NCBI RefSeq assembly: GCF_003334305.1
Contig: NZ_QOWS01000012.1
From: Escherichia coli
GTDB taxonomy: Bacteria; Pseudomonadota; Gammaproteobacteria; Enterobacterales; Enterobacteriaceae
Reading direction: 5' to 3' (one strand)
Length of the DNA stretch: 64,000 bases
The position numbers and the translations under genes were made by a program. Of this stretch, positions 11,519-37,613 are shown piece after piece. Below the pieces are notes generated by a model. It searched no databases. It saw nothing but the letters and a program-made list of their open reading frames with translations, and had not been told where the DNA came from. How positions within the stretch are numbered: position 1 is the first letter of the stretch; every line of letters begins with the position of its first letter.

Positions 11519-11568
11519 TTATCATTAATCCGTTAATGATGTGGCCGGGCGAACCCGGCCTAATGTGA

Positions 11569-19417: not shown

Positions 19418-19621
19418 TTGCATTCCTTGTGGTGAAGCAGTATTTAGCGCGATCAAACTGTAAAATTATTGCGGATTCTAGCAGAAGCCGCTACCGCAAA
19501 AGGTTGGCGTTACGTGCCATAGGGCGTTAATGTGCCTCAATTTAACACATGACTGCTCAAACGGCAGTCAAACGTCGCTGAAATTCACATTTAATTCACT
19601 ATTAGTGCCAGGACATTAACA

Positions 19622-20251
19622 ATGCTTAAGCCAGACAACCTGCCCGTTACATTTGGCAAAAACGATGTAGAAATTATTGCACGAGAAACACTTTATCGCG
19701 GCTTTTTTTCATTAGATCTTTATAGATTTCGTCATCGTTTATTCAACGGGCAAATGAGTCATGAGGTACGGAGGGAAATTTTTGAGCGCGGTCACGCCGC
19801 AGTCTTGCTACCCTTTGACCCAGTGCGTGATGAAGTTGTGCTGATTGAGCAGATTCGGATTGCCGCATACGACACCAGTGAAACCCCCTGGCTACTGGAG
19901 ATGGTTGCCGGGATGATAGAAGAGGGTGAAAGTGTGGAAGATGTTGCCCGTCGCGAAGCGATTGAAGAGGCGGGACTGATAGTCAAACGGACCAAACCGG
20001 TGTTAAGTTTCCTGGCAAGCCCGGGGGGCACCAGTGAGCGTTCGTCAATTATGGTGGGCGAAGTGGACGCCACGACCGCAAGCGGTATTCATGGTCTGGC
20101 TGATGAAAACGAAGATATTCGCGTTCATGTGGTAAGCCGGGAACAGGCATACCAGTGGGTAGAAGAGGGGAAAATCGACAACGCAGCGTCGGTCATCGCT
20201 TTGCAATGGCTGCAGCTGCATCATCAAGCGTTAAAAAATGAGTGGGCATAA
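19622..20251 (+). CDS. nudF: ADP-ribose pyrophosphatase (Nudix)
   Basis: 209 aa with a Nudix box ([22 protein letters not shown]). Confidence 0.93.
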
Positions 20252-20674
20252 ATGAAGCGTTACACACCTGACTTTCCTGAAATGATGCGCCTGTGCGAGA
20301 TGAACTTTTCACAATTGCGCCGTTTGTTACCGCGCAATGACGCACCCGGCGAAACTGTAAGCTATCAGGTGGCAAACGCACAATATCGGCTGACGATTGT
20401 GGAATCGACCCGATACACTACCCTGGTGACAATAGAACAGACTGCGCCCGCGATCAGTTACTGGAGCCTTCCGTCAATGACGGTGCGTCTGTATCATGAC
20501 GCGATGGTGGCTGAAGTGTGTTCAAGCCAGCAGATTTTTCGCTTCAAAGCGCGGTATGATTATCCTAATAAAAAGTTGCATCAACGCGACGAAAAGCATC
20601 AAATTAACCAGTTTTTAGCGGACTGGTTGCGATACTGTTTAGCACATGGAGCGATGGCGATTCCGGTTTACTAG
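20252..20674 (+). CDS. yqiB: DUF1249 protein
   Basis: 140 aa. Its start abuts the nudF stop (TAAATG), and it lies in the conserved nudF-yqiB-cpdA-yqiA-parE order. Confidence 0.85.
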
Positions 20675-20698
20675 CGTCGTGAAACCTAAGGACACCAT

Positions 20699-21526
20699 TT
20701 GGAAAGCCTGTTAACCCTTCCTCTGGCTGGTGAGGCCAGAGTCAGGATTTTACAAATTACCGATACTCACCTGTTTGCACAAAAGCACGAAGCCCTGTTA
20801 GGGGTAAACACCTGGGAAAGCTACCAGGCGGTGCTGGAGGCGATTCGTCCACATCAGCACGAATTCGACCTGATTGTCGCGACAGGTGATTTAGCGCAGG
20901 ATCAATCCTCTGCGGCCTATCAGCATTTCGCTGAAGGCATCGCAAGTTTTCGTGCGCCCTGCGTCTGGCTGCCGGGCAACCACGATTTCCAGCCCGCGAT
21001 GTACAGCGCGTTACAGGATGCGGGTATCTCCCCGGCGAAGCGCGTGTTTATTGGTGAGCAATGGCAAATCCTGTTGCTGGATAGCCAGGTGTTTGGCGTG
21101 CCGCACGGTGAGCTGAGCGAGTTTCAGCTTGAGTGGCTGGAACGTAAACTGGCCGATGCGCCAGAACGCCATACGTTGCTGCTGCTGCATCATCATCCGC
21201 TACCTGCGGGTTGTAGTTGGCTTGATCAACACAGCCTGCGTAACGCGGGCGAACTGGATACCGTGCTGGCGAAGTTTCCGCACGTCAAATACTTGCTGTG
21301 CGGTCATATTCATCAGGAGCTGGATCTCGACTGGAACGGTCGCCGCCTGCTGGCAACGCCGTCGACCTGTGTGCAGTTTAAGCCGCACTGTTCCAACTTT
21401 ACGCTGGACACCATCGCGCCCGGCTGGCGTACTCTCGAGTTACATGCTGATGGCACGCTGACCACCGAGGTGCATCGCCTGGCGGACACACGTTTCCAAC
21501 CTGATACCGCTTCAGAAGGCTACTGA
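20699..21526 (+). CDS. cpdA: 3',5'-cyclic AMP phosphodiesterase
   Basis: 275 aa calcineurin-like metallophosphoesterase (DTH, GDL, GNHD, GHIH motifs), with a TTG start. Confidence 0.92.
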
Positions 21527-22107
21527 TGTCTACGCTTCTTTATTTACACGGTTTCAACAGCTCGCCGCGCTCTGCAAAAGCGAGCTTGTTAAAAAACTGG
21601 CTGGCGGAACATCACCCTGACGTTGAGATGATCATTCCGCAGTTGCCGCCGTATCCTTCCGACGCGGCAGAGCTGCTGGAATCCATTGTCCTGGAACATG
21701 GCGGCGATTCGCTGGGTATTGTCGGTTCGTCACTGGGGGGATATTACGCCACCTGGTTGTCACAATGTTTTATGCTGCCCGCAGTGGTGGTAAACCCGGC
21801 GGTGCGCCCGTTTGAACTGCTGACGGACTATCTCGGTCAGAACGAGAACCCCTACACCGGGCAGCAATATGTGCTAGAGTCACGCCATATTTACGATCTC
21901 AAAGTCATGCAGATTGACCCGCTGGAAGCGCCGGATTTGATCTGGCTGCTGCAACAGACGGGAGATGAAGTGCTGGATTACCGCCAGGCGGTGGCGTACT
22001 ACGCTTCCTGCCGCCAGACTGTCATAGAAGGCGGCAACCACGCATTCACGGGCTTCGAAGATTATTTCAACCCGATCGTCGATTTTCTTGGTCTGCACCA
22101 TCTCTGA
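21526..22107 (+). CDS. yqiA: Esterase YqiA (alpha/beta hydrolase)
   Basis: 193 aa with a GSSLGG nucleophile elbow. Its start overlaps the cpdA stop. Confidence 0.9.
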
Positions 22108-22132
22108 CGATCAACTCGAATTGCTAACTTAA

Positions 22133-24028
<1,896 letters not shown>

Positions 24029-24072
24029 TAATCTTTACCCGGCAAACATGTGTTTTGCCGGGTTGTCGCTGA

Positions 24073-24942
24073 TTATTTTATTGGGCACAGTTTGTTACGA
24101 TCTGGAAATAGTGTTGCCAGCGAACCAGCCAGAGTTTTCCAGTCCGTAGCCATTTTTTCTGCTTGTGCAGTTGTTATTACTGCACCTTGTTGTTTAATAA
24201 GCTCATCCTCCACTCTGGTATAGTGAATAATGGTAAAATCCGTAGAGGACCATTTATCCTTAGAGAACATCTTCGTCATCGCATGAATGTTTGCTTGCCC
24301 GTCATCGATAAAAACAATCGCGTCATATTTGTTCCCCATTTTATCCAGCATATAATCGAGAATTACGCCTTTATCTTGCCCGGAAGAAAAAAATACCCCC
24401 TGGCTGTACAGCCATGACCGTTTGAGTTTCCCTTTTTCAAAGGGTGGCAAAGTATCCTCTTTCTTCCTGAGTGCGGAAGACGAAAAATCAATGCCGTTTC
24501 GCTTTAATTCCCGCAATGTCGGAAAGAGAGTATCCGGTGCACGGGATGTCAGAGCAAAAGCGGTATGCTTTTGTTGCCACTGTTTTAACATTGTCGGTAA
24601 CTGTGGCTCGGTAAGCTGCATAGGGCTAAGTTCGTAAAGCATACTGATTGTATTTTCATACAGGCAGGGAACTTTTTGCGAGTCATCCGGCTTTAAGGGC
24701 AATTTATCGGTTTACCATTGATACCAGATATCACCGCCAATGCGTGTGCCACTCGTTAATAACGTATTATCAATGTCAAAAACCAATAATATCTTATCGG
24801 ATGGATAGAGAGTTTCCTTTTCGGTGATAATTTTACTGACCGCACTATATTCGCCAGTAACTATATTTTTTACCTGTGCGTAAGATAAAGCTGGCAGAGC
24901 AGAGAGTATCATCCAGAGAATGATTTTAAATTTATTATTCAT
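24073..24942 (-). pseudogene. Secreted HAD-like phosphatase (DxDxT motif), interrupted by an in-frame TAA
   Basis: The 76-aa ORF (24712-24942) has a signal peptide and the FDIDNTLL motif. It ends at TAA (24712-24714), and the same frame continues directly into the 209-aa ORF (..YQW*TDKLPLKPDD..). Confidence 0.7.
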
Positions 24943-24955
24943 TTTTTATTCCAGA

Positions 24956-25690
24956 TTAGAAAGTATAAGTCAGACCCCAGCGCCAGCGGATTTGGCGATT
25001 ACTTGATGTTTTATCCACACCTTTATAATCCGCAATACTCATATAGGGTATCCACGATCCCATTTTGTACCCTACTTTAAATGATGCGGTATAGTTTTTA
25101 TGGCCATCATTCCAGGTTAAATAACCATTATTGTAATAGACCAGGTTTAACTGATATTGGAAGTTGGTTTTTTGTGGTCGATAGTCGATCCACACATCGT
25201 AACGGCGGTTATTACGATCATCGTTGCCATAACCTTTGGATTTATCGGTAGCTTTATCCATGTCATAACGAAAACGACCCGAAACTTTCCATTCTTTGCT
25301 GAAATCATAACCCGCAGAAAGACCATATTCGTAAGTTGACCAATATTGCGTGGTATCAAGCCAGAACATGGGTTCTAACCAGAATTTTTTGTCATCCAGC
25401 GGCTTAAAGCGGTAAACAACAGATAATCCTGTTCCGTTATTGCCAAATTGTGAGGGGTCCCACTTATCTTTATCACCTTCATCGGTGTTATAGCGTAATT
25501 CTCCCATCAAACCGATACCATTACTAAAAAATGTACCAAATTCAACGCGGTCCGCGTGGGTGCGAGTATCATCAAGATACTCATGACGATAATCAATAAA
25601 TCCATGCGGCTGTTCTGCACAGACTAGTGTAGGTGACAGGCAGGATAACATTGTTATTCCTGCAAGTGATATTTTAAGATAAGAATTCAT
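24956..25690 (-). CDS. KdgM/NanC-family outer membrane oligosaccharide porin
   Basis: 244 aa with a signal peptide. It shows an alternating beta-strand pattern, the GFIDYRHEY start typical of the KdgM family, and a C-terminal ...WGLTYTF ending in aromatic Phe. Confidence 0.7.
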   Translation of the reverse strand: MNSYLKISLAGITMLSCLSPTLVCAEQPHGFIDYRHEYLDDTRTHADRVEFGTFFSNGIGLMGELRYNTDEGDKDKWDPSQFGNNGTGLSVVYRFKPLDDKKFWLEPMFWLDTTQYWSTYEYGLSAGYDFSKEWKVSGRFRYDMDKATDKSKGYGNDDRNNRRYDVWIDYRPQKTNFQYQLNLVYYNNGYLTWNDGHKNYTASFKVGYKMGSWIPYMSIADYKGVDKTSSNRQIRWRWGLTYTF

Positions 25691-25785
25691 AATATTCCCT
25701 TTCAGAATAAAATATATTTTTGGTGATCGAATACACCATCTGATGATTCCAGGTATTAGAATGTTTTTTTATCTATAGTTTGACT

Positions 25786-26910
25786 TTAAATTTTAAGTTT
25801 GTTTTCCTTATCAATGAATAGATAAAATTTCGTCTGTTGATGGGGCTGGAAATTATTATCAGATACAAATATTAACGATGTATGCCCATCAATCAGAGGA
25901 CCGAAGGTTACCCCTTCAATACAATCCGCAGAGGAAGTGTAATCAGCAAAATCAATTAATAATTTTTTACTGACGGGTTGTAACGTGGATTTATTGGACC
26001 AATCTTGCAGACTGTCAATATCCTTGATATCGCTGGCAGCAGTTAAATCGACCATATAAACTCTGACAGAGTAATCCCAGTCATTGAACCCAGCACTGAC
26101 GTTTCTGCCGGAACGTTCGATGACCAACAATTGGTGATCATTCAGCGCCAGGACCTCGGATACGCCATTATCATTAATACCGAACTTACTCACTTGCGGA
26201 ACAGGATCAGTAATATAGAGATATTCATGCAATTGCTTTGAAGGTCGACCGTCTGCATCTATAGAAAATTGCAGTAAGCGTGATGTACCTGAATTTATTG
26301 GACTTGCAATAGGCCCATCCTGTTTAAGGCTGCTTTCAACGGCGATAAAAAGTGATTTTCCATCTGGTGTAACTGTCAGGCCCTCCCAGGCGTTGCCGCT
26401 GCGAATACCATTGCTGCTCTCTTTGTCAGAACTAATATTAAATCGAGCAGGAAATAAAGACGTAAAATCTTTCTCCATTACGCCATCGAGAGTGCTCAGA
26501 CGCAGTGGAGCACCTAACTCCGAACTCCATAGTAATGACTTACCATTGTGTGTCAGGGCCAGACCTTCGGCATCCACCGTATTGGTCACGAAAGGCTGCT
26601 GTTTTGCATCAAGCAGTGGACGCTGGTTGAGAAAATTCACTTGCTCAATGCCCCTGGATGATACCTGTATTTTTAGTGTATAAAGACTGGCATCTCCTTC
26701 TTTATTATTGTTTCTGCTATCGTTAATAGCATAGAAAATATTTTTTTTTGCATCAAATGTGATGGCTGATAGCCCCGCGATTGTAACATTGTTCTGTTTT
26801 TCTCCCGTCCGGAAGTTGAACTCACCAGCATAATGAAGAAAACTGTTTGCCTGCGCTGTTGTGCATAACAGCGGTAATGCCAGAAAAATAGCGGCATGTC
26901 TTATTTTCAT
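25786..26910 (-). CDS. Secreted phytase-like / esterase-like beta-propeller protein
   Basis: 374 aa with a signal peptide (..TAQA/NS). It has repeated GLS/EGL.. blades and a D/N-rich sequence resembling the phytase-like esterase domain family. The assignment rests on recollection of that family only. Confidence 0.5.
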   Translation of the reverse strand: MKIRHAAIFLALPLLCTTAQANSFLHYAGEFNFRTGEKQNNVTIAGLSAITFDAKKNIFYAINDSRNNNKEGDASLYTLKIQVSSRGIEQVNFLNQRPLLDAKQQPFVTNTVDAEGLALTHNGKSLLWSSELGAPLRLSTLDGVMEKDFTSLFPARFNISSDKESSNGIRSGNAWEGLTVTPDGKSLFIAVESSLKQDGPIASPINSGTSRLLQFSIDADGRPSKQLHEYLYITDPVPQVSKFGINDNGVSEVLALNDHQLLVIERSGRNVSAGFNDWDYSVRVYMVDLTAASDIKDIDSLQDWSNKSTLQPVSKKLLIDFADYTSSADCIEGVTFGPLIDGHTSLIFVSDNNFQPHQQTKFYLFIDKENKLKI

Positions 26911-26939
26911 GATATTTACCTTTGTGTATGTATCTGATT

Positions 26940-27854
26940 TTAGTCGTGTTGTGAAAGAAAAAGATTAACTTCCGATGGTGTCGCCAGATGACCTCTGGCA
27001 CCTAATGCAGTAATATTTATTGCTGCAGTGGCAGAAGCAAATTTTAGTGCTTCAATTAAGGGCATGTTTTTTATTAAGCTATAAACAAATGCACCATTAA
27101 AAGTATCTCCAGCGCCAGTGGTATCAATAATGGGAATTGTATAGCTACCTATTTTTACTTGCTCATTGCCTTTGACTGCAATTACTCCCCTAACATCCAG
27201 CGTAACCACGACAGCCTCAAGTTGATACTCGTCTTGTATATCATGCAGAAGTGTAAAATCTGGCTCTGCTGCATAGCCACGAATAAAACCGTCATAATTA
27301 AATATCGCAATATCAGCAAGGTGTAAAATTCTGGCAAGGTGTTCAGGTGTTGCAATGATATGAGGCTCAATATCAACGACAACTTTTGTCATCTGGCTAC
27401 GGGAATATTCGGCCAGCATACGAAATTTCTCGATATCTGCTGGCATCGTATAATAATAACGGCTTTGCGCAATTGCCTGCAGGGCTTTTTCTTTATCCCA
27501 CTCATGATCACTACCAGGCGAGTAAACCAACGTTTTTTCACCTAATTCATCAATAAAGATAATCGCGGTATTGGCAATCAATTCCGGAATTACCTGAACG
27601 AAATCACAATTTACATGATATTTTTTAAATCCATCAAGAATGATCGAGGCTGAATGATCATTGCCCACACATGAAACAGATACCACATTGAGACCCAGTT
27701 GTCCCATCGCACAGGCACTGTTGGCGACTGTGCCGCCAGCTTGTTCACCCAGACGTGTCCCGACCACTTTACCGCCACGAGTGGGGAGTGACGGGATAGA
27801 TAAAAAAATATCTATATTTCCACTGCCTAAAGCGGCGACATCAAATTTCTTCAT
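26940..27854 (-). CDS. PfkB-family carbohydrate kinase
   Basis: 304 aa from MKKFDVAALGSGNIDIF.. preceded by the RBS gggaga. The C-terminus carries the DTTGAGDTFNGAF signature. The upstream extension to 27908 would overlap the SIS gene and is rejected. Confidence 0.85.
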   Translation of the reverse strand: MKKFDVAALGSGNIDIFLSIPSLPTRGGKVVGTRLGEQAGGTVANSACAMGQLGLNVVSVSCVGNDHSASIILDGFKKYHVNCDFVQVIPELIANTAIIFIDELGEKTLVYSPGSDHEWDKEKALQAIAQSRYYYTMPADIEKFRMLAEYSRSQMTKVVVDIEPHIIATPEHLARILHLADIAIFNYDGFIRGYAAEPDFTLLHDIQDEYQLEAVVVTLDVRGVIAVKGNEQVKIGSYTIPIIDTTGAGDTFNGAFVYSLIKNMPLIEALKFASATAAINITALGARGHLATPSEVNLFLSQHD

Positions 27855-27858
27855 AGTC

Positions 27859-28857
27859 TTATTTCTCCCTATGGCTAACGCGTTGCCCGCCTGCGTCGAC
27901 ATAATCACAACTTAAATGCCAGCACATTTCATATAACCACTGCATGACCAGAAATAAATTGTTGGACTCACTGGCATCAGGTATAAAACTGATTAATTCT
28001 GCTGTCGCTCCCTGTTCAACAATTGCTTTTTGGGTTGCAATGTAAAATGGGTACTCGCGGGATGTAGCTGGCAGTAAAAAATAATGCTGACCGACACCAG
28101 CCTGATGTAAGCGTAATGAATGATAAAATTCTTCCAGTGGAAAGGCTGTCGCACGAATCTGTGGGCCGCAAGAAAGTAAATTGCTCCCCGATATTGCTAG
28201 TCCCCAACTTAAGCCACTCCCCAGAAACGTTATCTCTTTTTGTTGGTAAAAATGGCGCTTCTTTTGCTGCCAGTGCTGATTAATCTGGCTAAATTTCCCT
28301 TCTAAATCCTCTTCAATTTGCAGTGGTGTTAAGCCTGGACATAAGTTTTGCGCTAAGCGCAGGAGGGTATAAAGTGTGACGCTACTACTTTGCGTTGGAA
28401 TACCCTGCTTATTCGCCCATGTATAGAGCATGTTTTCTGTTATTGCGCAAAATGGTGTTCCAGGGCAATTCGTCACACCCAGCACTTGCGCGTTTGAGCA
28501 TACTGCGTGGCTAAGGGCGTCAACGGTCAGTGATGGTCTGCCACTTGCGCTGAGAATAATGATCAACGTTTCTTTCTGATAACGGGTTAAATCAGTCTGA
28601 AGAAAATCCCACGTTTGCAATGCGGAACAAAACAGATGTGTGTATTTCCCCAGCCAGGCGGCGGCACATAGTGCCACCGTCCAGGAGTCGCCCGATCCCA
28701 CTATACAGACGCGTTCAACAGCACGTTTATCGAGCTGAACAGATGAAAAACATTCACCCCAGATAGCTGCCAAATGGCGTAGCGCTGCCGCCGTTGCATT
28801 TATTTCCTCACGAGTTTGCGCTAATGGCATAACAGGAGCACGGGCTGGCATGTTCAT
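27859..28857 (-). CDS. Double SIS-domain sugar-phosphate isomerase/deglycase-like protein
   Basis: 332 aa with two SIS-like segments (CIVGSGDSWTVA and TFLGSGLSWGLA). Its ATG overlaps the ARH gene stop by 1 nt (TAATG). Confidence 0.75.
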   Translation of the reverse strand: MNMPARAPVMPLAQTREEINATAAALRHLAAIWGECFSSVQLDKRAVERVCIVGSGDSWTVALCAAAWLGKYTHLFCSALQTWDFLQTDLTRYQKETLIIILSASGRPSLTVDALSHAVCSNAQVLGVTNCPGTPFCAITENMLYTWANKQGIPTQSSSVTLYTLLRLAQNLCPGLTPLQIEEDLEGKFSQINQHWQQKKRHFYQQKEITFLGSGLSWGLAISGSNLLSCGPQIRATAFPLEEFYHSLRLHQAGVGQHYFLLPATSREYPFYIATQKAIVEQGATAELISFIPDASESNNLFLVMQWLYEMCWHLSCDYVDAGGQRVSHREK

Positions 28858-29933
28858 TATTTCTCCTGTGCCTGTACTGCAAGCAATGTCAGACCCGATG
28901 CGATCGCTTCAACATCGAAATCTTTATTATTTACGGCGCGGAAAAAGGCATATTTATCTTCAGGGAGCGCATCAAAACCGCGCCATGCCCCTGCAATTGC
29001 GCCTGCCATCGTAGCGATGCTATCGGTGTCATTGCCAATATTGGCGCAGGCATGGATGGTTTCCCAGGGTTCTCCTTTGCAGTACAGCAATAGACCGATT
29101 GCCGCAGGAATGGATTCATGGGCGGCAACAGAGTTACCAACCAAACCTTCCATTTCTCGCAGACAAGACTCCAGATCATTGGCACGTCTGGCGATGTCCG
29201 CTGCAAGTTGGATGCGCATGGCGATAGATGGCCCTGCTACACATCGTGCATATTGTTTGGCCAGGCGTTCGCCGTAATTCGCTCCCCAGATTGCGGCATC
29301 CAGTAATGATGTGAGCGAGGCTTCTGGTAACATAGCCTGCGATGTCGCTGCAGCGATGGCGCAAGCGCTGGCAATCGCAATATTGGTGTCATGTGAAGGT
29401 AGGCAAGTTATTAACGCCAGGCGACACGCTTTTTCTTTCTTGCCAGGCCAGATCAATCCTGCCGGGGCTACACGCATTCCTGCGCCATTCGTGGTGCCGA
29501 CATTGGGGGCCTGACGAGAAGATGTTCCAATACGCCCAATGGTGTTTGTTGGTCTACCTTCTTTTAGTGCCTTGACGATTTGTTCTGTTGTGGGGCCTTT
29601 ATAATTTGCGTAGGGCTGCATATCGGCCCAACGCAGAAGACAAGCTAACCAGTCATTATTGGTGAAGTTATCAAATCCAGCCTCAATTAACCCTTCTGAA
29701 AACACATACATTTGGCTGGAATCGTCGGTGATAAGTCCTGCAACACCATTTAATGAGCCAGCAAAGGTATCGGCAGGAGGAGAAACAAAGGCATTTAAAA
29801 AACCTCCCCATTGAGTTTTTATTTCATCAATGCTGTAGAGTTCAGTCGCTGCGCCTAATGCATCGCCCATACCTGCGCAGGCTAAAGAACCTAATATTTT
29901 GTTATAAATTACGGCTTGTTCTATTTTGTTCAC
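28857..29933 (-). CDS. ADP-ribosylglycohydrolase (ARH/DraG) family hydrolase
   Basis: 358 aa. It has the N-terminal GMGDALGAATE motif, an internal DDSSQ, and the C-terminal GNDTDSIATMAGAIAGAW metal-site motif typical of the family. Confidence 0.8.
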   Translation of the reverse strand: MNKIEQAVIYNKILGSLACAGMGDALGAATELYSIDEIKTQWGGFLNAFVSPPADTFAGSLNGVAGLITDDSSQMYVFSEGLIEAGFDNFTNNDWLACLLRWADMQPYANYKGPTTEQIVKALKEGRPTNTIGRIGTSSRQAPNVGTTNGAGMRVAPAGLIWPGKKEKACRLALITCLPSHDTNIAIASACAIAAATSQAMLPEASLTSLLDAAIWGANYGERLAKQYARCVAGPSIAMRIQLAADIARRANDLESCLREMEGLVGNSVAAHESIPAAIGLLLYCKGEPWETIHACANIGNDTDSIATMAGAIAGAWRGFDALPEDKYAFFRAVNNKDFDVEAIASGLTLLAVQAQEK

Positions 29934-29946
29934 AATATTCTCTCTG

Positions 29947-30699
29947 TTACACGCTAAAACTGTCTTTTGTAATTCGTGCTTTGTAGGAGTACCGACTTGC
30001 GGGATAAACCATCTCTACATACTCCATTGGTTTACGTTCCACGGATAACGTGACGCGGGTACAACTTAATACGACGTCATCGGCAGTCAGTTCCAGTAAT
30101 TGACGCTCAAGGGGCGAGGGAAGCCGGGCAGAGATAATCTCCGTTGCTTCTAAAGGTTTAATAGCGAGTTTTTCTTCCAGTAAAATATAGAGCGAACCCG
30201 TCGCCAGCAGCTCTTCCAGAGTTATTTCTTGTCCGTCATTTAACGCAAGCCATGATGTCTGAATACCCAGCGGCGTACTTCCCATATAGCGAATGCGTTT
30301 TATACAGAAAACGGTATGGACATGGATATCAAGTTCGAGATTTTTTCTGATAATATCACTGAGAGGAATATAACCTATTTCAAGAATATTCTGTGCCGGT
30401 ACGCCACCACGAGCCTTAATGTCATCAGTAAAACTATGTAATAAATGATTTTCCCGACTGCGAGCCGGTAATGTAAATGTTCCTTGCCCGTGGACACTAT
30501 GCAGGTATCCGCGTTGTTTCAAACTTTCTATTGCTTTCCGAATTGTTGTTCTGCTGCTTAAAAAATGTTCAGCCAGTTCTCTTTCTGTTGGTATAGCTTT
30601 GCCTTCTTTCCATTCACCGTTATCAATTTTTTTCTTTATTTCATCAAAAATTTCACGATGCTTTAGCTGACCTTTACTGGCTTTATAAATTCTTATCAT
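29947..30699 (-). CDS. GntR-family transcriptional regulator, HutC subfamily (wHTH plus UTRA effector domain)
   Basis: 250 aa. The N-terminus carries the PTERELAEHF..SRTTIRKAIESLKQRGYL..HGQGTF HTH, and the C-terminal ~150 aa look UTRA-like. It lies 13 nt upstream of the ARH gene. Confidence 0.85.
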   Translation of the reverse strand: MIRIYKASKGQLKHREIFDEIKKKIDNGEWKEGKAIPTERELAEHFLSSRTTIRKAIESLKQRGYLHSVHGQGTFTLPARSRENHLLHSFTDDIKARGGVPAQNILEIGYIPLSDIIRKNLELDIHVHTVFCIKRIRYMGSTPLGIQTSWLALNDGQEITLEELLATGSLYILLEEKLAIKPLEATEIISARLPSPLERQLLELTADDVVLSCTRVTLSVERKPMEYVEMVYPASRYSYKARITKDSFSV

Positions 30700-30718
30700 G
30701 ACAAAGCCTCATTTCAAG

Positions 30719-30730
30719 TGGTTGATACCA
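30719..30730. promoter_or_regulatory. Candidate HutC-type operator, TGGTTGATACCA
   Basis: Inverted repeat TGGT-N4-ACCA, located 20 nt upstream of the regulator ATG (30699) in the divergent intergenic region. Confidence 0.4.
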
Positions 30731-30881
30731 ACTTTACATTCTTTTATTTTTATTGCGCAGTATGCTTATTTGTTATCTGTGACATAAAACAGGAAAAACC
30801 ACATTTATTAATAAATATCATGCGGTTAAGTGAAATTGGTTTTTATGTGATGCTGCTCAATATTAACTCAGTGGTTTGTTG

Positions 30882-30893
30882 TGGTATCTACCA
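30882..30893. promoter_or_regulatory. Candidate HutC-type operator, TGGTATCTACCA
   Basis: Perfect inverted repeat TGGTA-TC-TACCA, about 90 nt upstream of the transporter ATG. It resembles the DasR/NagR-type TGGT.TA.ACCA operator cores of HutC regulators. Confidence 0.45.
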
Positions 30894-30985
30894 ATGCATT
30901 TATTCTCAATCGTAAAGTTATGTGCTGAATGAGTTCCGATACATTTGTTTTTAATATAATTTCATGTGATTAATGAGTGCTGTGT

Positions 30986-32317
30986 ATGAAACTGACAATA
31001 AATGAAAAGATAGGTTTTGGTGCCGGTGATATGGCCATTGCGATAGTAATGATGTCTTTAGCCATGATCATCACTTATTTTTACACGGATGTATTTGGTC
31101 TGAAACCCGTCGACTTAGGTATTCTGTTATTTTCTGTACGTATTCTTGATGCTGTGATTGATCCAGTTGTGGGAACAATGACAGACATAACGAATACACG
31201 TTGGGGAAAATATCGGCCATGGTTGCTTTTTATGTCAATACCGTTTGGGATAAGCATTTGGTTGATGTTCACCACACCTGATACCGATTATTCAGTTAAG
31301 CTTTTATGGGCCTGGGCTACCTATGTGTTACTTACCTTGACCTATACGTTAATCGCTATTCCTTATGTTTCATTAATCAGCGTTATCACGGATGATCCAC
31401 AAGAGAGATTGAGCGCCAATGGTTATCGTTTTGTTATGACAAAAATTGCCATGTTCGCCGTAACAATTATTGTTCCTTTATCTGCAATGTATCTTGGGAA
31501 GAATAACGTACAACTGGGTTATCAAATAGCAATGGGGACAATGGGTATTCTGGCAACGTGTTTATGCCTGTATTGTTTTTTTAGCGTGAGAGAGCGCATC
31601 TACCATCCAAAACCCAGTCTCGGTATGGCCGCGCAGTTTCGGTTACTGATCAAAAATGATCAATGGCTCATTTTGGGCGCTGTAATTGCGATCATTATGT
31701 TTGGCGGGATTATTCGTAACTCTGTCGCTGCATATTATGCAAAATATTACCTGAGTGGTGGGGATGCTTTAATTTCACCGTTTTTAACTTCAGGCGTGAT
31801 CGCCTCAGTTCTGGCTATGATCGCTTGCACCTGGCTTACTCGTCTCTATGACAAAATAAAAATATTTCGTTATACCCAATTACTGGCGTTCGTGGTGGGT
31901 GGTGCGATGTATTTCGTGCAACCAAATTCTATAGTGCTAGCTTTTACATTTTATATTGTGGTGACTTTCCTGACGGATATCCAGCTTCCCATTTATTGGG
32001 CATCCATTGCTGAGTCCGTGGATTACGGTGAAATGAAAACGGGGCAACGTGTTTCTGGCCTGGCATTTGGCGGGATTCTCTTTTTCCAAAAGTTCGGTAT
32101 GGGGCTGGCAGGGGGCTTTATCGGAATCGCTTTAGCCTATCTGGATTATCAACCAGGCGTAGAACAAACACCACAGGCGCTGTGGGGGATCTGCCTGTTA
32201 ATGACGATCATTCCCGCGATACTTAACCTGCTTACCGGACTCATCATGAGATTTTATCTGATTAATAATGAATATTACGAACAGATAAAAGCACGGTTAC
32301 AAACGGCGGAAGAGTGA
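30986..32317 (+). CDS. GPH-family (glycoside-pentoside-hexuronide:cation) symporter
   Basis: 443 aa from MKLTINEKIGFGAGDMA with about 12 TM segments. It carries the RWGKYRPWLL loop signature of MelB/YicJ-type carriers. The GTG at 30977 is an alternative start. Confidence 0.85.
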   Translation: MKLTINEKIGFGAGDMAIAIVMMSLAMIITYFYTDVFGLKPVDLGILLFSVRILDAVIDPVVGTMTDITNTRWGKYRPWLLFMSIPFGISIWLMFTTPDTDYSVKLLWAWATYVLLTLTYTLIAIPYVSLISVITDDPQERLSANGYRFVMTKIAMFAVTIIVPLSAMYLGKNNVQLGYQIAMGTMGILATCLCLYCFFSVRERIYHPKPSLGMAAQFRLLIKNDQWLILGAVIAIIMFGGIIRNSVAAYYAKYYLSGGDALISPFLTSGVIASVLAMIACTWLTRLYDKIKIFRYTQLLAFVVGGAMYFVQPNSIVLAFTFYIVVTFLTDIQLPIYWASIAESVDYGEMKTGQRVSGLAFGGILFFQKFGMGLAGGFIGIALAYLDYQPGVEQTPQALWGICLLMTIIPAILNLLTGLIMRFYLINNEYYEQIKARLQTAEE

Positions 32318-32325
32318 AAATAAAT

Positions 32326-32352
32326 GGCCGGCAAGCAGCACCGGCCTCTTTT
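32326..32352. terminator. Bidirectional terminator between the symporter gene and ygiN
   Basis: Stem ggccgg / ccggcc with a 9-nt loop, then tctttt. Confidence 0.65.
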
Positions 32353-32360
32353 CAGAAATA

Positions 32361-32675
32361 TTAAATCCCTGGCTGCAGAATACGAATATTCATCTCCAGC
32401 ACGTCGCCTTTTACGGCTTCGCTGTACGCCTTCATGTGCGGGGTTTGCAGATGCGCTTCAAGATGCGCGATGCTTTCCCACTGCTCAATCATCACGATAG
32501 AATCCGGTGCCATAGACTGGAAACTCACGCCAGCAGCGCAATCCACCATTGGCGCATAGCCGTGGCAACCTTCTTCTTTCAGTACGGTTGGAACGATTTT
32601 AGCAAACTGATCCAATACCGCCTGACGGTGATGTTGACCAGGACGAGTACGGATTTCTGCGATTACGGTAAGCAT
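32361..32675 (-). CDS. ygiN: Quinol monooxygenase (ABM domain)
   Basis: 104 aa matching YgiN. It lies downstream of mdaB on the same strand. Confidence 0.92.
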   Translation of the reverse strand: MLTVIAEIRTRPGQHHRQAVLDQFAKIVPTVLKEEGCHGYAPMVDCAAGVSFQSMAPDSIVMIEQWESIAHLEAHLQTPHMKAYSEAVKGDVLEMNIRILQPGI

Positions 32676-32705
32676 GGTTAACTCCTTCTAAAGCCTGAGC
32701 TCTAG

Positions 32706-33287
32706 TTAACCAAAAATTTCCACAAGATGCTTGCGATATTCTTCAGTATAGCGGGGAACATCAGGCATTTTTATCACGTCATTAGCGATAAATGTCGGCA
32801 GCGGTTCCATACCGAGGAATTGGTTTGCTTTATGGAACGGCAGATACACACCGTCAACGCCAACGCCGTGGAAGAACTGATCTTTTTCGGTGAAGGCTTC
32901 CATTGGTGCGTTCCAGGTTAGAGAAAGCATATATTTTTTGCCCTGTACCAGGCCGCCGGAACCGTATTTTTTCGACGGATCTTTGCGGGTACGACCATCG
33001 CTGGCATACAGTGTTCCATGACCTTCGGTGAATACATCATCAATATATTTTTTCACTGTCCACGGCGCGCCCATCCACCAGCCTGGCATCTGCCAGATCA
33101 CCACATCAGCCCAGAGAAAGTTTTGTACTTCCGCTTTGACAACGTAGTCGCTGTCGGCGCGAACGATGCGGACATCATGCCCGAGGTCGCGCAGTGTGCC
33201 ATCCGCGACTTCGGTCAGGGTGTCGTTCAGTTGACCATTGGAGTGGGCGAATTTTTTCGCGCCGTTGATAATCAGGATGTTGCTCAT
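32706..33287 (-). CDS. mdaB: NADPH:quinone oxidoreductase MdaB
   Basis: 193 aa flavodoxin-like fold protein (MSNILIINGAKKFAHSNGQLN..). Confidence 0.93.
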   Translation of the reverse strand: MSNILIINGAKKFAHSNGQLNDTLTEVADGTLRDLGHDVRIVRADSDYVVKAEVQNFLWADVVIWQMPGWWMGAPWTVKKYIDDVFTEGHGTLYASDGRTRKDPSKKYGSGGLVQGKKYMLSLTWNAPMEAFTEKDQFFHGVGVDGVYLPFHKANQFLGMEPLPTFIANDVIKMPDVPRYTEEYRKHLVEIFG

Positions 33288-33605
33288 TTTTTAACCTCAA
33301 GGTGAGACGTTTGTCGACTATAGTACGTCACAGAGCGGTACGGTGAAATTAGCAAAATGTGCAAAGTCTTTTGCGAATTTAGCAAAAGTCTGATCTAGCT
33401 CTGACTCACCGATGCAGGATAAATATTTTCTGAAAATGACAATACTGATAGCCATTCCTCATAATTCTTACTCGCACCGGAATAATTTACACGTTTGGTT
33501 CGGTTTTTTTTGGGATTGAAAATATGGCTTTGAATAAGTAAAAGATGAAAATATCAACGTGTCATGTTGATAATTATAAATGGATTTTTATGAGCGTACT
33601 GATAT

Positions 33606-33938
33606 ATGTTAAAGCATAAAATTCAAACAATATTTGAAGCTCTGTTATACATAATGCTTACTTATTGGTTAATAGATGCTTTTTTTGCTTTCAATAAGTA
33701 TGACTGGATGCTTGAGTCGGGAGGCAATATTTGCAGTATACCTTCCGTTTCAGGCGAAGATCGTATATTGCAAGCAATGATTGCAGCATTTTTTCTTCTT
33801 ACGCCACTTATTATTCTTATCTTAAGAAAACTCTTTATGCGGGAAATGTTCGAGTTTTGGGTATATGTATTTTCGCTCGGTATTTGTCTGGTTTGTGGTT
33901 GGTGGCTTTTTTGGGGACGGTTTATATTTTGCTATTAG
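33606..33938 (+). CDS. ygiZ: Small inner membrane protein
   Basis: 110 aa with 3-4 TM segments, encoded by an AT-rich gene. Its position between mdaB and qseC matches E. coli. Confidence 0.75.
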   Translation: MLKHKIQTIFEALLYIMLTYWLIDAFFAFNKYDWMLESGGNICSIPSVSGEDRILQAMIAAFFLLTPLIILILRKLFMREMFEFWVYVFSLGICLVCGWWLFWGRFIFCY

Positions 33939-33983
33939 TAAAATCTATGAGAGTCGTTTTAACGGCTCTCATAGACAGAGAAG

Positions 33984-35333
33984 TTACCAGCTTACCTTCG
34001 CCTCAAATCCACCTTGTTCCGCATTCCCAAATTCAACATTCATGCCATGCAATTTGGCGATTCGCTGGACAATCGATAGCCCAAGCCCGCTGCCGGTAGC
34101 GGTTTGTCCGGGTGGGCGATAGAAGCGTTCGCCAATTCGCGCCAGAGCCTCTGGCGTCACACCGGGGCCGTTATCCCTCACGATGAAATTATCAGCATTC
34201 AGCGTGACGTCTATCACGCTGCCCTGTGGACTGTAGCGCACGGCGTTATCCAGCAAATTTCGCACCAACAAACTTAGCAATAGCGGTTGTCCGGTGCGTT
34301 TGATGCCGTGGGCATTGAGTGTCAGTCGCACGTCAATTTTCGCCTGCTGCGCCGTGTGGTAAATATCCATCACCGACGATTGGAGGAGATCTTCAAGCGG
34401 GATCTCCGCGACGTCCTGAAGGTTATCCAGTGAGTCCAGCCGCGATAGAGTGAGCAGTTGATCAACCAGACGAGTAGCGCGATCGATCCCGTAATGTAAT
34501 TGAAGCAGCGCTTTTTTCCGCGCTTGCGGATCATCGTCAGAAAGCTGCGCAACTTCGGTTTGCACTTTCAGCGCCGTTAACGGGCTACGTAGTTCGTGAG
34601 CTGCGTCGGAGGTAAAGCGTCGTTCACGAACCATCATCGCATGTGTGCGGGCGAACAGTTGATTTAGCGACTCAACCAACGGACGCACTTCGCTGGGTAC
34701 GCCAGTCGCGTTTAGTGGTTTTTCCGAGTCAGGGTCACGCATACGCAGCGCCAGCGCCAGTTTGTTCAGCGGCGCGAGTTCACGACCCAATAGTACCATC
34801 ATGATGATTAACATAATCGGCAGTGCGACCAGCCACGGGATCAATTGCCCGGCAACAATCGCCAGCGCCATGTCTTCACGGTATTCCCATTCCTGACCAA
34901 CAACGATGCGATATTTGCCATCAGGTGAGGTCATCCAGACAAAACGCCATTGATCTTTATCGCCCACCAGTTGCCCGTCAGCAAAACCTTCCCGTTGATA
35001 GCTATAAGGAATATCTTCTCCGTTATCGCCATCGTTAAGGACCATTCTGCCGTCGTGGGTAAAGATGGCAAAGGTCAGCGCATCGTCATCAACATGACCG
35101 TGTTTTAATTTATTTGGCGTCTGTGCCATGCGATCCGCCGCGTTGATTTCGTTGAGATCGAGCGTACTTAACCGCTTGGCAAACAGCATCAGTTGGGTGT
35201 CGAACAATTCATCGACGTTATCCGTTGTTTGTTTCCAGGCGACAAAGCTGGAAAGCAGCCAGGTCACCGAGGCCAGAATTAAAAAGATTAGCGTCAGCCT
35301 GACGCGCAGACTAAGACGTTGGGTAAATTTCAT
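33984..35333 (-). CDS. qseC: Sensor histidine kinase QseC
   Basis: 449 aa with 2 TM segments, an H-box ([13 protein letters not shown]) and a HATPase domain. It overlaps qseB by 4 nt. Confidence 0.95.
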
Positions 35334-35989
35334 TTCTCACCTAATGTGTAGCCAATACCATGCACGGTACGAATAAAATCACTACCGAGTTTGCGTCGCA
35401 GATGATGCACATGCACTTCAACGGCATTACTGGTGACCTCTTCGTCCCAGGTATACAGTTTCTCTTCAATCAGTTTGCGCGGCAGTACCCGACCAGCGTT
35501 ACGCATCAGTAATTCCAGCAGGGCAAATTCTTTTGGTTTCAGTGTTAAGGGTTCGCCAGCCAGCGTGGCGATACGTTTGCCGGGGTCGAGCATGACGTTA
35601 CCGTGGCGCAGCTCGTTGCTGGCCTGGCCGTTGGTTCGGCGCATCAGAGCTTCCAGCCTGGCGGCGACTTCTATCAACGCAAAAGGTTTACACAGATAAT
35701 CGTCAGCTCCCAGACGCAGCCCTTCTACACGTTCCTCCAGCGCATCGCGCGCGGTCAGGATCAGTACCGGCTCACACTGACCTTTTTCTCGCCATTCGCG
35801 CAAAATATCGCGACCATCCATGCCTGGTAAGGTTAAATCCAGGATCACCGCATCATAAGGCGCGCTATAAAGCGCCTCTTTTCCCTGACGACCTTGTGTA
35901 AACCAGTCGACGCTAAAACCCATTTTACTAAGGCCCGTTTTGATGCCGTCGCCAATCAGCATGTCATCTTCTATCAGTAAAATTCGCAT
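35330..35989 (-). CDS. qseB: OmpR-family response regulator QseB
   Basis: 219 aa with a receiver domain (MRILLIEDD.., D51 context [11 protein letters not shown]) and a winged-helix domain. Confidence 0.95.
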
Positions 35990-36140
35990 TTTTTCATCCC
36001 TGCGATAACCGTATTTGCTGCCAGTAAACCGTGTTGTAACGCGCTCTGTACAGCACTAAATTTTATTTTTTTCCCTTAAGAAGTTGTTAAGGACTATCTT
36101 GTTAAATGCTCGGAAACAGACATTAAAGGGAGTAATAAAC

Positions 36141-36533
36141 ATGAAAAAATTCGCAGCAGTAATCGCAGTAATGGCCCTGTGCAGCGCACCGGTGATGGCA
36201 GCAGAGCAGGGCGGTTTTTCTGGCCCATCGGCAACGCAAAGTCAGGCCGGAGGATTCCAGGGGCCGAACGGCAGCGTAACGACCGTAGAAAGCGCAAAAT
36301 CCCTGCGTGACGACACCTGGGTAACCCTGCGCGGCAATATCGTTGAACGCATCTCTGACGATCTCTACGTGTTTAAAGATGCCAGCGGTACTATCAATGT
36401 TGATATCGACCACAAACGCTGGAACGGTGTGACGGTGACGCCGAAAGATACGGTTGAGATTCAGGGTGAAGTCGATAAAGACTGGAATTCTGTTGAAATT
36501 GACGTCAAACAGATCCGCAAAGTAAATCCGTAA
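36141..36533 (+). CDS. ygiW: Periplasmic OB-fold stress protein (BOF family)
   Basis: 130 aa from MKKFAAVIAVMALCSAPVMA. An RBS (aaggga) lies upstream. Confidence 0.9.
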   Translation: MKKFAAVIAVMALCSAPVMAAEQGGFSGPSATQSQAGGFQGPNGSVTTVESAKSLRDDTWVTLRGNIVERISDDLYVFKDASGTINVDIDHKRWNGVTVTPKDTVEIQGEVDKDWNSVEIDVKQIRKVNP

Positions 36534-36585
36534 TTGTTACCGCTCCCGGGACGCGTTCCCGGGAATAATTTCGCAGGGAGGCAAA

Positions 36586-37068
36586 ATGACAAACCTGACA
36601 CTGGATGTAAACATTATCGATTTCCCATCAATCCCTGTGGCGATGTTGCCGCACCGCTGTAGCCCTGAGTTGCTCAACTACAGTGTGGCGAAATTTATCA
36701 TGTGGCGTAAAGAGACGAGGCTTTCTCCTGTTAACCAAAGCCAGACTTTTGGCGTCGCCTGGGACGACCCTGCCACCACCGCACCGGAAGCGTTTCGCTT
36801 TGATATCTGCGGCAGCGTTAGCGAACCGATTCCCGATAATCGTTATGGTGTGAGCAATGGTGAACTTACCGGTGGACGTTATGCCGTGGCCCGCCACGTT
36901 GGCGAGCTGGACGATATTTCACACACGATATGGGGCATTATTCGCCACTGGCTGCCTGCAAGCGGCGAGAAAATGCGTAAAGCACCGATTCTGTTTCACT
37001 ACACCAATCTTGCCGAAGGGGTGACAGAGCAGCGACTGGAAACGGATGTTTATGTGCCGTTGGCGTGA
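36586..37068 (+). CDS. ygiV: GyrI-like domain transcriptional repressor-like protein
   Basis: 160 aa with a GyrI/SbmC-like effector domain. It follows ygiW, as in E. coli. Confidence 0.88.
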   Translation: MTNLTLDVNIIDFPSIPVAMLPHRCSPELLNYSVAKFIMWRKETRLSPVNQSQTFGVAWDDPATTAPEAFRFDICGSVSEPIPDNRYGVSNGELTGGRYAVARHVGELDDISHTIWGIIRHWLPASGEKMRKAPILFHYTNLAEGVTEQRLETDVYVPLA

Positions 37069-37613
37069 TGGGGAATCTTTACCGGAGTGTGAGCCAAATC
37101 ACTCGCGATAAGTTTGAGCGAACAATGCCACAGGCGTATTGTTGTTGGGCTTATAATTTCTCCGGTAAGGAATACCATGTATACGCGAAATTTATTATCC
37201 GGTGCGCCGTAAGCCGTCTCGGGGGTATCCATGAGCAAGCCGCACTTATGGCAGGAGGCGCGGGGCACTGGTGGAGACACAGCTAAACTGGGCTGAACCG
37301 TATACTTACAGTCGACTACTTTGATGCTTTAGGCTTCCCTGGACTCGCATAACCTCAACTTCTCGAATCGCCCGGAGCGGACCCCCATGCCGAGTGGTGT
37401 GGCATGGGCGCAACCTTGTGCTGCCCTCTATGCCGATCAAGTCTACAGCAAAGAGTTGTATATCAAGGCACATTGATGCCTTTATCGCCGTCGGAGCACG
37501 TCCGGCGGCGCTATTCACGCTGATCTCCTGTGACTCGACGCGGCAGATAATGTAGTATCTCCGGCAATATTGCCCCTTTGAAGGCTGGCGAATAAGTTGA
37601 GGAATCAGAATTA

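Follow-up and report, generated by a model that had tools for sequence, protein, structure and literature searches.

An accessory parE-ygiN locus of Escherichia coli joins an ADP-ribosylglycohydrolase-family enzyme to an atypical PfkB kinase and is a candidate riboside-scavenging regulon

The nearest described counterpart of the locus reported here is yegTUV of Escherichia coli K-12 with its repressor YegW (GgaR), a system that is itself uncharacterised (PMC10819704). Our locus is an 8.3-kb island of eight reading frames between parE (22136-24028, + strand) and ygiN (32361-32675, - strand) in a 64,000-nucleotide stretch of E. coli contig NZ_QOWS01000012.1 (assembly GCF_003334305.1), referred to throughout as the window. 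Both systems contain an importer, a hydrolase of the ADP-ribosylglycohydrolase (ARH) family, an atypical PfkB kinase and a GntR/HutC repressor. Identity to the K-12 proteins is 31% between ARH and YegU over the full length of ARH, 25% between the regulator and YegW, and 22% between the kinase and YegV, and we take yegTUVW to be a distant paralogue of the island and its nearest relative in architecture. The K-12 system differs in that its importer is a nucleoside permease of the NHS family and not a glycoside-pentoside-hexuronide (GPH) symporter, in the absence of a SIS protein and of a periplasmic and outer-membrane module, and in being core in K-12. In the reading that we consider probable, if well short of assured, the island is a single regulon that scavenges an extracellular phosphorylated, ribose-linked (nucleoside-like) compound.

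An earlier note, made by reading this DNA alone, had counted eight reading frames in the block, and both the open reading frames and the RefSeq annotation, which is the same in the 100%-identical strain A7 from orangutan faeces, bear it out. All of the gene families that it named find their match in Pfam (DUF2608, KdgM, Phytase-like, PfkB, SIS, ADP_ribosyl_GH, GntR with UTRA, and MFS_2/GPH):

24073..24942, - strand: gene for a DUF2608 secreted HAD-type phosphatase, here a pseudogene (Pfam PF11019, 154.6 bits)
24956..25690, - strand: KdgM-family outer-membrane porin with a signal peptide (Pfam PF06178, 105.9 bits, cut-off 22)
25786..26910, - strand: secreted phytase-like protein, a five-bladed beta-propeller with a signal peptide (cleavage after AQA; Pfam Phytase-like)
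26940..27854, - strand: PfkB kinase, ribokinase-like and non-canonical (Pfam PF00294)
27859..28857, - strand: double-SIS protein, a predicted sugar-phosphate isomerase or deaminase (Pfam SIS)
28857..29933, - strand: ARH-family hydrolase, cytoplasmic (Pfam PF03747, 170.3 bits, cut-off 26.2)
29947..30699, - strand: GntR/HutC-type regulator with winged helix and UTRA domain (GntR 63.9 bits, UTRA 81.7 bits, above cut-off)
30700..30985: divergent control region with two TGGT-N4-ACCA palindromes, at 30719-30730 and 30882-30893
30986..32317, + strand: GPH-family cation symporter, a predicted inner-membrane importer (TIGR00792, 346.2 bits, cut-off 231.35; MFS_2, 327 bits)

The same note could map this gene set onto no characterised E. 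coli pathway; our literature search, made by protein accession, by combination of families and for yegTUV, PF13449, DUF2608, the fit genes and RB-TnSeq, likewise returned nothing describing the locus.

Three further systems invite comparison. The Bacteroides rus loci combine a ribokinase-type kinase, a transporter and a regulator with variable releasing enzymes, including ADP-ribosylglycohydrolases and nucleoside hydrolases (Glowacki et al., bioRxiv 10.1101/574913). They are like the island, by description, in coupling a kinase, transporter and regulator module to nucleoside- or ribose-releasing enzymes, and differ from it in their SusC/D pair, their RusR or LacI-type regulators, their true ribokinases and the use of free ribose as inducer. 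In pseudouridine catabolism, the PfkB kinase YeiC makes the nucleoside 5'-phosphate, from which the metal-dependent glycosidase YeiN then frees ribose 5-phosphate. This is the kinase-then-glycosidase order that we propose for the island kinase and ARH, but the fold of YeiN is indigoidine synthase A-like, and the window kinase scores just 21 bits against the pseudouridine-kinase model. Lastly, Haemophilus takes up NAD and nicotinamide mononucleotide (NMN) by means of the OmpP2 porin, the NadN nucleotidase, the HAD-type acid phosphatase e(P4), PnuC and NadR. The logic is similar, with porin entry of an anionic nucleotide, its conversion to a riboside by periplasmic pyrophosphatase and HAD phosphatase, an importer and a cytoplasmic kinase, and the orthologous locus of Providencia does encode an enzyme of the UshA/NadN family; however, no component is orthologous, the Haemophilus route serves salvage and not catabolism, and it has no ARH or SIS protein. 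To name NAD as the island substrate on this analogy would be speculation.

The ARH gene is the best conserved of the locus. Residues E31, T69-D70-D71 and D302-T303-D304 of its product are invariant in 15 orthologues, and from the structures of ARH3 and DraG we presume that they form the binuclear metal site. The closest PDB entry is the uncharacterised protein MJ1187 (E 3e-21), and the enzyme stays below the equivalog cut-offs for DraG (41.9 bits vs 337) and Tri1 (22.2 bits vs 490). Homologues with 64-85% identity occur in Enterobacter, Leclercia, Klebsiella, Kosakonia, Trabulsiella, Providencia, Yersinia and Vibrio, and others, near 50% identity, in Burkholderiales and other groups. The genes that accompany them were counted within 9 kb of the ARH gene in one genome per species, for which 80 loci were returned, 79 of them with an ARH call:

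PfkB kinase: 67/79 loci
Bmp-type ABC transporter: about 50/79 loci
GntR regulator: 47/79 loci
inosine-uridine nucleoside hydrolase: 39/79 loci
phytase-like protein: 34/79 loci
TonB-dependent receptor: 17/79 loci
SIS protein: 16/79 loci
KdgM porin: 9/79 loci
GPH symporter: 9/79 loci

By these counts the fixed core of the loci is the ARH and its kinase. Around this core the importer varies between GPH, Bmp-type ABC, CUT1 sugar-type ABC (in Chloroflexi) and NHS (in yegT), and the periplasmic phosphatase between DUF2608, UshA and AcpA. In most other taxa the GPH symporter is replaced by Bmp-type nucleoside ABC transporters, the binding protein of which matches the purine-nucleoside receptors PnrA/TmpC and BmpA/BmpD (E 1e-28 to 1e-30), and ARH and nucleoside importers co-occur across four phyla. 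In Providencia rettgeri, an adenosine deaminase (TIGR01430, above cut-off), GPH and KdgM lie on one side of the locus and GntR, ARH, SIS, PfkB, Phytase-like and UshA (equivalog, 739 bits, cut-off 600) on the other. The Vibrio locus carries UshA-like, Phytase-like, KdgM, Tsx, GntR, a Bmp-type ABC transporter, ARH, SIS and PfkB, and that of Herbaspirillum a TonB-dependent receptor, GntR, a Bmp-type ABC transporter, ARH, PfkB, a nucleoside hydrolase and Phytase-like. With nucleoside-type transporters, nucleoside hydrolases, Tsx, adenosine deaminase and UshA all encoded in orthologous loci, the island probably belongs to a riboside-scavenging class.

The kinase scores below the ribokinase cut-offs (TIGR02152, 142 bits vs 299.65; NF008353, 129.5 bits vs 341) although its nearest structures are ribokinases (PDB 4x8f, 1gqt). 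The ribose-contacting residues of E. coli RbsK are N14, D16, G42, K43, N46, E143 and D255. The window kinase keeps N14, D16, G42, N46 and D255, whereas K43 has become Thr and E143 has become Ala; YegV is atypical as well, with C43 and Y143 at these positions. We aligned all PfkB genes of the 79 ARH loci to RbsK and found Thr at position 43 together with the absence of Glu at position 143 in 54 loci, and another non-RbsK pattern in 14 further loci (Firmicutes, Chloroflexi). N14 is kept in the window kinase and its Enterobacterales and Vibrio orthologues and is variable in more distant loci. An additional kinase, its signature NDGGKGN...E exactly that of RbsK, is encoded by 17 loci, and in 16 loci such a canonical copy stands side by side with the type seen in the window; since some loci carry both, the ARH-linked kinase is not redundant with ribokinase, implying different substrates. 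We infer, partly from the hydroxyls that K43 and E143 contact, that the ARH-linked kinase acts on a riboside or a C1-substituted ribose and not on free ribose.

The double-SIS protein has two SIS repeats with weak NCBIfam glmS matches and PDB matches to 3tbf and 3fkj at E ~2e-6; its counterparts in other loci match NagB-II and GlmD weakly. The locus of Neobittarella massiliensis (L074 1627-12071) contains ARH and kinase along with three nucleoside hydrolases, an adenosine deaminase, a sugar-1-phosphate isomerase of the IF-2B family (MtnA/DrdI-like) and a class II aldolase, a combination that corresponds to a 5-deoxyribose or methylthioribose 'DHAP shunt' (dihydroxyacetone phosphate shunt) and in which the isomerase may fill the role of the SIS protein of Proteobacteria.

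The leftward operon starts with gntR, and the gaps from gntR through ARH, SIS and kinase to the phytase-like gene are 13, -1, 4 and 29 bp, which suits a single operon of these five genes, after which come the genes for the porin and DUF2608. The intergenic stretch between gntR and the GPH gene is 277 bp long (30700-30976) with a GC content of 0.303. The motif TGGT-N4-ACCA has five sites in the 64 kb, two of them in the control region, against 0.75 expected, and no shuffle reached five. It recurs, often as the perfect TGGTACGTACCA, in promoter regions of orthologous loci of five orders (Enterobacterales, Vibrio, Burkholderiales, Rhizobiales and Rhodobacterales), and we take it to resemble the operators of the HutC subfamily such as the DasR/NagR site. 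In addition, the sequence reads as follows upstream of the porin gene:

25721..25738: palindrome TGGTG-N8-CACCA, 31 bp upstream of the porin start codon

This palindrome, spaced differently from the two sites above, may serve as an additional operator; kdgM of Leclercia has a TGGT-N4-ACCA site in front of it. A candidate CRP half-site was seen by eye near 30845-30860.

Three of the products, the phytase-like protein, the porin and the DUF2608 phosphatase, carry signal peptides. Orthologues of the porin are present in the Providencia, Vibrio, Klebsiella, Leclercia and Enterobacter loci. The many invariant Asp and Glu residues of the phytase-like protein suggest a metal-dependent phosphohydrolase. 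A PDB sequence search returned no match for this protein or for DUF2608. The alkaline phosphatase Psip1 was considered as a characterised PF13449 member and set aside, as the paper on it mentions merely an extra phytase-like domain in some orthologues.

The full DUF2608 gene has 289 codons; its product carries a signal peptide cut after SYA as well as DIDNT and FIDDG motifs. In the window, a nonsense codon (CAA to TAA at 24712-24714, annotated as 'internal stop' by RefSeq in the identical strain A7) leaves a 209-codon reading frame from which signal peptide and DxDxT motif are missing. The secreted HAD phosphatase of the earlier note was thus correct as to family, with its HAD DxDxT motif, and wrong as to a working gene. 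Because the gene is intact (289 aa) in a near-identical genome labelled Shigella, in the two other E. coli allele classes (L010, L090 and L091 together) and in Escherichia ruysiae, its loss is recent and local.

From the observed gene families, signal peptides, gene neighbourhoods, kinase signature, operator motif and purifying selection (see below), we infer the catalytic steps, the sequence in which kinase and ARH act and the kind of substrate as follows. The KdgM-family porin would admit an anionic precursor across the outer membrane. Two periplasmic enzymes, the phytase-like propeller and the DUF2608 phosphatase (the latter inactive in this strain), would strip phosphate or cut phosphoesters to yield a neutral riboside, which the GPH symporter would import. 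The kinase and ARH would then work together: most likely, the riboside is first phosphorylated by the kinase, and ARH next cuts the ribosyl bond to give ribose phosphate and an aglycone. We tentatively prefer this order because of the pseudouridine analogy and because ARH enzymes recognise 5-phosphorylated ribose. The double-SIS enzyme would isomerise or deaminate the sugar-phosphate product for entry into central metabolism, and the HutC-type repressor would bind both TGGT-N4-ACCA sites of the control region and be released by a pathway intermediate.

Several points weigh against this scheme. Known ARH enzymes act on ADP-ribosyl conjugates and, to our knowledge, none acts on free nucleosides; nor do we know of GPH transporters that carry nucleosides. 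If ribose 5-phosphate alone is formed, the scheme offers no explanation for the SIS protein; SIS genes occur in only about 20 of the 79 loci, and the E. coli SIS protein is only 28-35% identical to most SIS proteins of other loci (49% to that of Enterobacter, 86% to that of E. ruysiae). The fold of the phytase-like protein matches generic five-bladed propellers alone, so its designation as a phosphohydrolase draws on the family name and the acidic residues. E. coli already possesses nucleoside catabolism, and the benefit of the island must therefore lie in an unusual substrate. Finally, we found no published experiment on any gene of the orthologous group.

Side observations on the orthologous loci concern two neighbours and one presumed artefact. 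In Vibrio bivalvicida (L007 13485-21062), a Tn7-like tnsABCDE module directly follows the locus. An unassigned open reading frame 'family' that recurs in 12 high-GC loci overlaps the kinase gene and matches nothing in Pfam, and it was treated as a shadow reading frame. In six Enterobacterales genomes and four gene orders, proteins encoded directly beside the ARH locus have C-terminal regions resembling ADP-ribosyltransferases (ART), some fused to Tc-toxin repeats:

L015 15826-17706: ART-like gene
L016 15832-17199: ART-like gene
L049 15834-17177: ART-like gene
L012 5802-8327: ART-like gene
L005 17050-18015: ART-like gene
L081 13202-14254: ART-like gene

In L005 and L081, a partner gene for a protein of ~340-360 aa follows the ART-like gene; neither the short ART-like proteins nor the partners of these two loci match Pfam or NCBIfam, and the P. 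rettgeri locus L006 is without the pair found in L005.

Among the other explanations, one extends the riboside scheme and is, in our judgement, unlikely but consequential: the ARH and the non-ribokinase PfkB, including YegU and YegV, would constitute an unrecognised, phylum-spanning route of kinase and phosphoribohydrolase for the riboside remnants of NAD or ADP-ribose-derived compounds broken down in the periplasm. Its candidate substrates would be nicotinamide riboside or NMN, or the ribosyl-arginine and ribosyl-serine of ADP-ribosylated material, which ordinary nucleoside hydrolases would be unable to cleave. If this were true, gut and soil bacteria would feed on the debris of ADP-ribosylation and NAD, ARH would be the missing small-molecule ribosyl hydrolase, and the ART-type cassettes beside the six Enterobacterales loci would be a meaningful link and not a coincidence.

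The more conventional explanations fare worse. Assignment of the island to a frl/fra operon, to a DraG or Tri1 system, to RbsK or to a known defence system was rejected on model scores below cut-off and on the PADLOC search, in which no defence model matched any of the eight proteins. The resemblance to frl/fra operons for the deglycation of Amadori compounds (fructosamine or ribulosamine) nevertheless deserves a closer look. There, a kinase phosphorylates the glycated amine and a SIS protein is the deglycase, as in FrlD and FrlB, under a HutC repressor like FrlR; the combination of PfkB kinase, double-SIS protein and HutC-type regulator does share the architecture of frlBDR, and the SIS protein is GlmS-isomerase-like. 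Yet the score with the fructoselysine 6-kinase (FrlD) model is 44.2 bits, where the cut-off is 247, there is no match to an FrlB model, the kinase is nearest to ribokinases, SIS is absent from most orthologous loci while nucleoside transporters and hydrolases are common in them, and ARH, the most conserved gene, would be left without a role. We regard such an operon as a very unlikely identity for the island.

It is also very improbable that ARH reverses the ADP-ribosylation of proteins or nucleic acids, either in regulation (as DraG) or in immunity to ART toxins (as Tri1), with the other genes as unrelated neighbours. This is the chemistry of all characterised ARH members, and the ART-like cassettes beside the six orthologous loci speak for it. 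On the other hand, there is no ART gene in or near the E. coli block, the DraG and Tri1 models are far below cut-off, PADLOC is silent, ARH is held in a tight operon with regulator, SIS and kinase (13-bp gap, 1-bp overlap), and its companionship with nucleoside importers extends across the four phyla.

A locus for phosphate scavenging or phytate utilisation, in which the phytase-like protein, phosphatase and porin would chiefly release inorganic phosphate, is suggested by the Pfam family name, by the presence of a secreted phosphatase and a porin, and by an AcpA-type phosphoesterase adjacent to the orthologous locus of Undibacterium. Such a role is hard to square with a sugar-type HutC repressor and its conserved operator, with a control region in which reading by eye revealed no Pho box, with five of the eight genes being regulator, cytoplasmic carbon-catabolic module and importer, and with the nucleoside-specific partners in other taxa, and we give it little credence.

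Scavenging of a phosphorylated riboside remains the reading that we favour. The parE-ygiN slot was surveyed in 5,426 complete E. coli genomes with junction-spanning queries. The island is carried by 409 of them (7.5%, ~1 in 13), and none of the 411 matched places is on a plasmid; the island is always chromosomal. Four states of the slot together account for 5,404 of the 5,426 genomes:

parE adjoins ygiN, the empty slot, as in K-12: 3,268 genomes
parE adjoins fitA, the fit island alone, as in O157:H7 and ST131: 1,727 genomes
GPH gene adjoins ygiN, this island alone: 287 genomes
GPH gene adjoins fitA, order parE-island-fit-ygiN, as in MS 200-1: 122 genomes

The fit island encodes the iron transporter fitABCDE-fitR (PMC2593036). 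It shares with our island the slot and the hairpin on the ygiN side and is found alongside it in 122 E. coli genomes and in E. ruysiae; it differs in serving siderophore transport with unrelated genes and in being about five times commoner (1,727 + 122 genomes vs 409).

E. ruysiae carries both islands in the opposite order, fit-island-ygiN. The E. ruysiae locus examined ends inside fit, so that adjacency to parE was not seen there, which counts against the history that we propose. Nucleotide identity to E. ruysiae is 86-93% for the island genes and 90-96% for the flanking core genes (ygiN 94.6%, mdaB 96.4%, qseC 89.6%), with synonymous divergence (dS) of 0.23-0.63 and 0.18-0.26, respectively. 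Within E. coli, the island alleles fall into three classes at about 100%, 98.2% and 97.2% identity. Between the window and MS 200-1, dS is 0.02-0.11 across the island except for a patch of 0.30 at gntR, and 0.11-0.16 in parE, ygiN and mdaB. The gntR allele of MS 200-1 (L090 15886-16638) is 91.8% identical to that of the window, which, next to neighbours with dS of 0.02-0.11, suggests a recombination patch inside the island. The ratio dN/dS is 0.05-0.34 in every island gene, both between E. coli alleles and against E. ruysiae; all island genes are under purifying selection.

Four slot states, a copy in E. ruysiae and divergence like that of the flanks are easier to reconcile with a long stay in the genus, punctuated by losses or replacements, than with recent insertion, and they indicate that the island is an old, functional occupant of a recombination or deletion hotspot that was lost or replaced many times, and no newcomer to a K-12-like ancestor. 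The empty state of K-12 may well be derived, although this genome survey does not settle which state is ancestral. That the island is a recently acquired, decaying block of foreign genes with no present function in E. coli, as its low GC content, its presence in 7.5% of genomes and the inactivated gene of this strain might imply, is the least likely of the explanations and is largely refuted by the selection and divergence data, namely dN/dS of 0.05-0.34 in all genes, three allele classes, divergence comparable to that of flanking core genes and a nonsense mutation limited to the lineage of this strain. The earlier note had stated that parE and ygiN are adjacent in K-12, which is the case there and in the 3,268 genomes with an empty slot, and had rightly called the block strain-variable, since most E. 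coli lack it. Its description of the block as 'inserted' between these genes is an oversimplification in view of the four-state slot, the E. ruysiae island and the flank-like divergence.

Two observations on individual island copies stand apart. In MS 200-1 and in E. ruysiae, the GPH gene is followed by a REP-like sequence that the window lacks. In E. coli ECMA0423 (L087 7672-15729), the island is 87-90% identical with 37-68 gaps per gene, and the flanking genes are 99.4-99.7% identical with few gaps; the mismatch is probably an assembly error in the AT-rich block, the alternative being a divergent allele.

The ends of the island are marked by hairpins, as had been claimed for both sides. Both fold well, and the right one also passes a terminator scan:

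24038..24062: left boundary hairpin, between the stop codons of parE and DUF2608 (folding of both strands)
32326..32346: right boundary hairpin, a terminator shared with ygiN (terminator scan and folding)

The left hairpin folds with -16.3 kcal/mol on the + strand (z -3.3) and -16.6 kcal/mol on the - strand (z -4.3) and looks like a bidirectional terminator, although it did not pass the terminator scan; it moves with the island, being found at the fitR-DUF2608 junction of E. ruysiae too. The right hairpin folds with -11.6 to -14.9 kcal/mol, and comparison of junctions shows a near-identical sequence flanking ygiN in strains with the fit island and a different one in K-12.

The GC content of the block (24029-32360) is 42.5% and that of the rest of the window 50.6%, in agreement with an impression gained by eye that the block is AT-richer than its flanks, and GC content at third codon positions (GC3) is 0.32-0.43 in island genes and 0.51-0.64 in flanking genes. 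Low GC alone fails to single out the island in the window because the ygiL-yqiGHI fimbrial cluster (7175-12120), in which yqiH is annotated as frameshifted in this strain, is as AT-rich (~40-43% GC). Scans of the block and its surroundings agreed with the absence of integrase, transposase, tRNA gene and flanking direct repeat that the first reading had reported: no tRNA gene lies in window positions 18000-38000, no direct or inverted repeats pair the two block ends, no integrase, recombinase or transposase is found among reading frames of at least 100 aa in 24030-32700 or in the RefSeq annotation, and the block contains no Rfam element (riboswitch or small RNA). The island thus has the atypical composition and patchy distribution of a classical integrative genomic island and none of its mobility gene, tRNA site and repeats, and the parE-ygiN slot cleanly exemplifies a replacement hotspot that has four states and lacks mobility genes. 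All in all, the earlier note was right about a strain-variable, AT-rich block with an unmapped pathway and missed the gene inactivation, the paralogy to yegTUVW and the neighbours that point to ribosides.

Outside the island, the window follows the core order, as had been stated; the K-12 order was confirmed from glnE to hybG. The genes nudF (ADP-ribose diphosphatase) and cpdA (cAMP phosphodiesterase), noted at 19622-20251, lie in the core operon immediately upstream of parE and four genes from the ARH gene, a proximity that is probably coincidental, both being core genes in all strains. A second strain-variable slot is the 545-bp gap between ygiV and parC (37069-37613), in which O157:H7 and EC958 have ygiS and K-12 also mqsR-mqsA. 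Between mdaB and ygiZ, MS 200-1 (L090 26777-27969) and EC958 (L004 13205-14397) carry a gene for an Hcp-family type VI effector and a hypothetical gene; the window has a 318-bp gap there (33288-33605) and neither of these genes, and O157:H7 has no annotated ygiZ at this place. The radical SAM protein gene ygiQ (42440-44697) is annotated as frameshifted in the identical strain A7.

The interest of the island stems mainly from the pair of ARH and atypical kinase, which includes yegU and yegV of K-12, has no assigned substrate and shows a conservation that reaches from E. coli as far as Burkholderiales, Rhizobiales, Chloroflexi and gut Clostridia. The island is a complete and tightly regulated version of this system, with porin, periplasmic enzymes, importer, cytoplasmic enzymes, repressor and operator. 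The existence of a complete island, of strains that naturally have or lack it, and of one lineage with a natural knockout of the phosphatase makes the question of the substrate of the pair experimentally tractable. The identity of this substrate would define a nutrient niche that sets about 7.5% of E. coli strains apart from the rest of the species.

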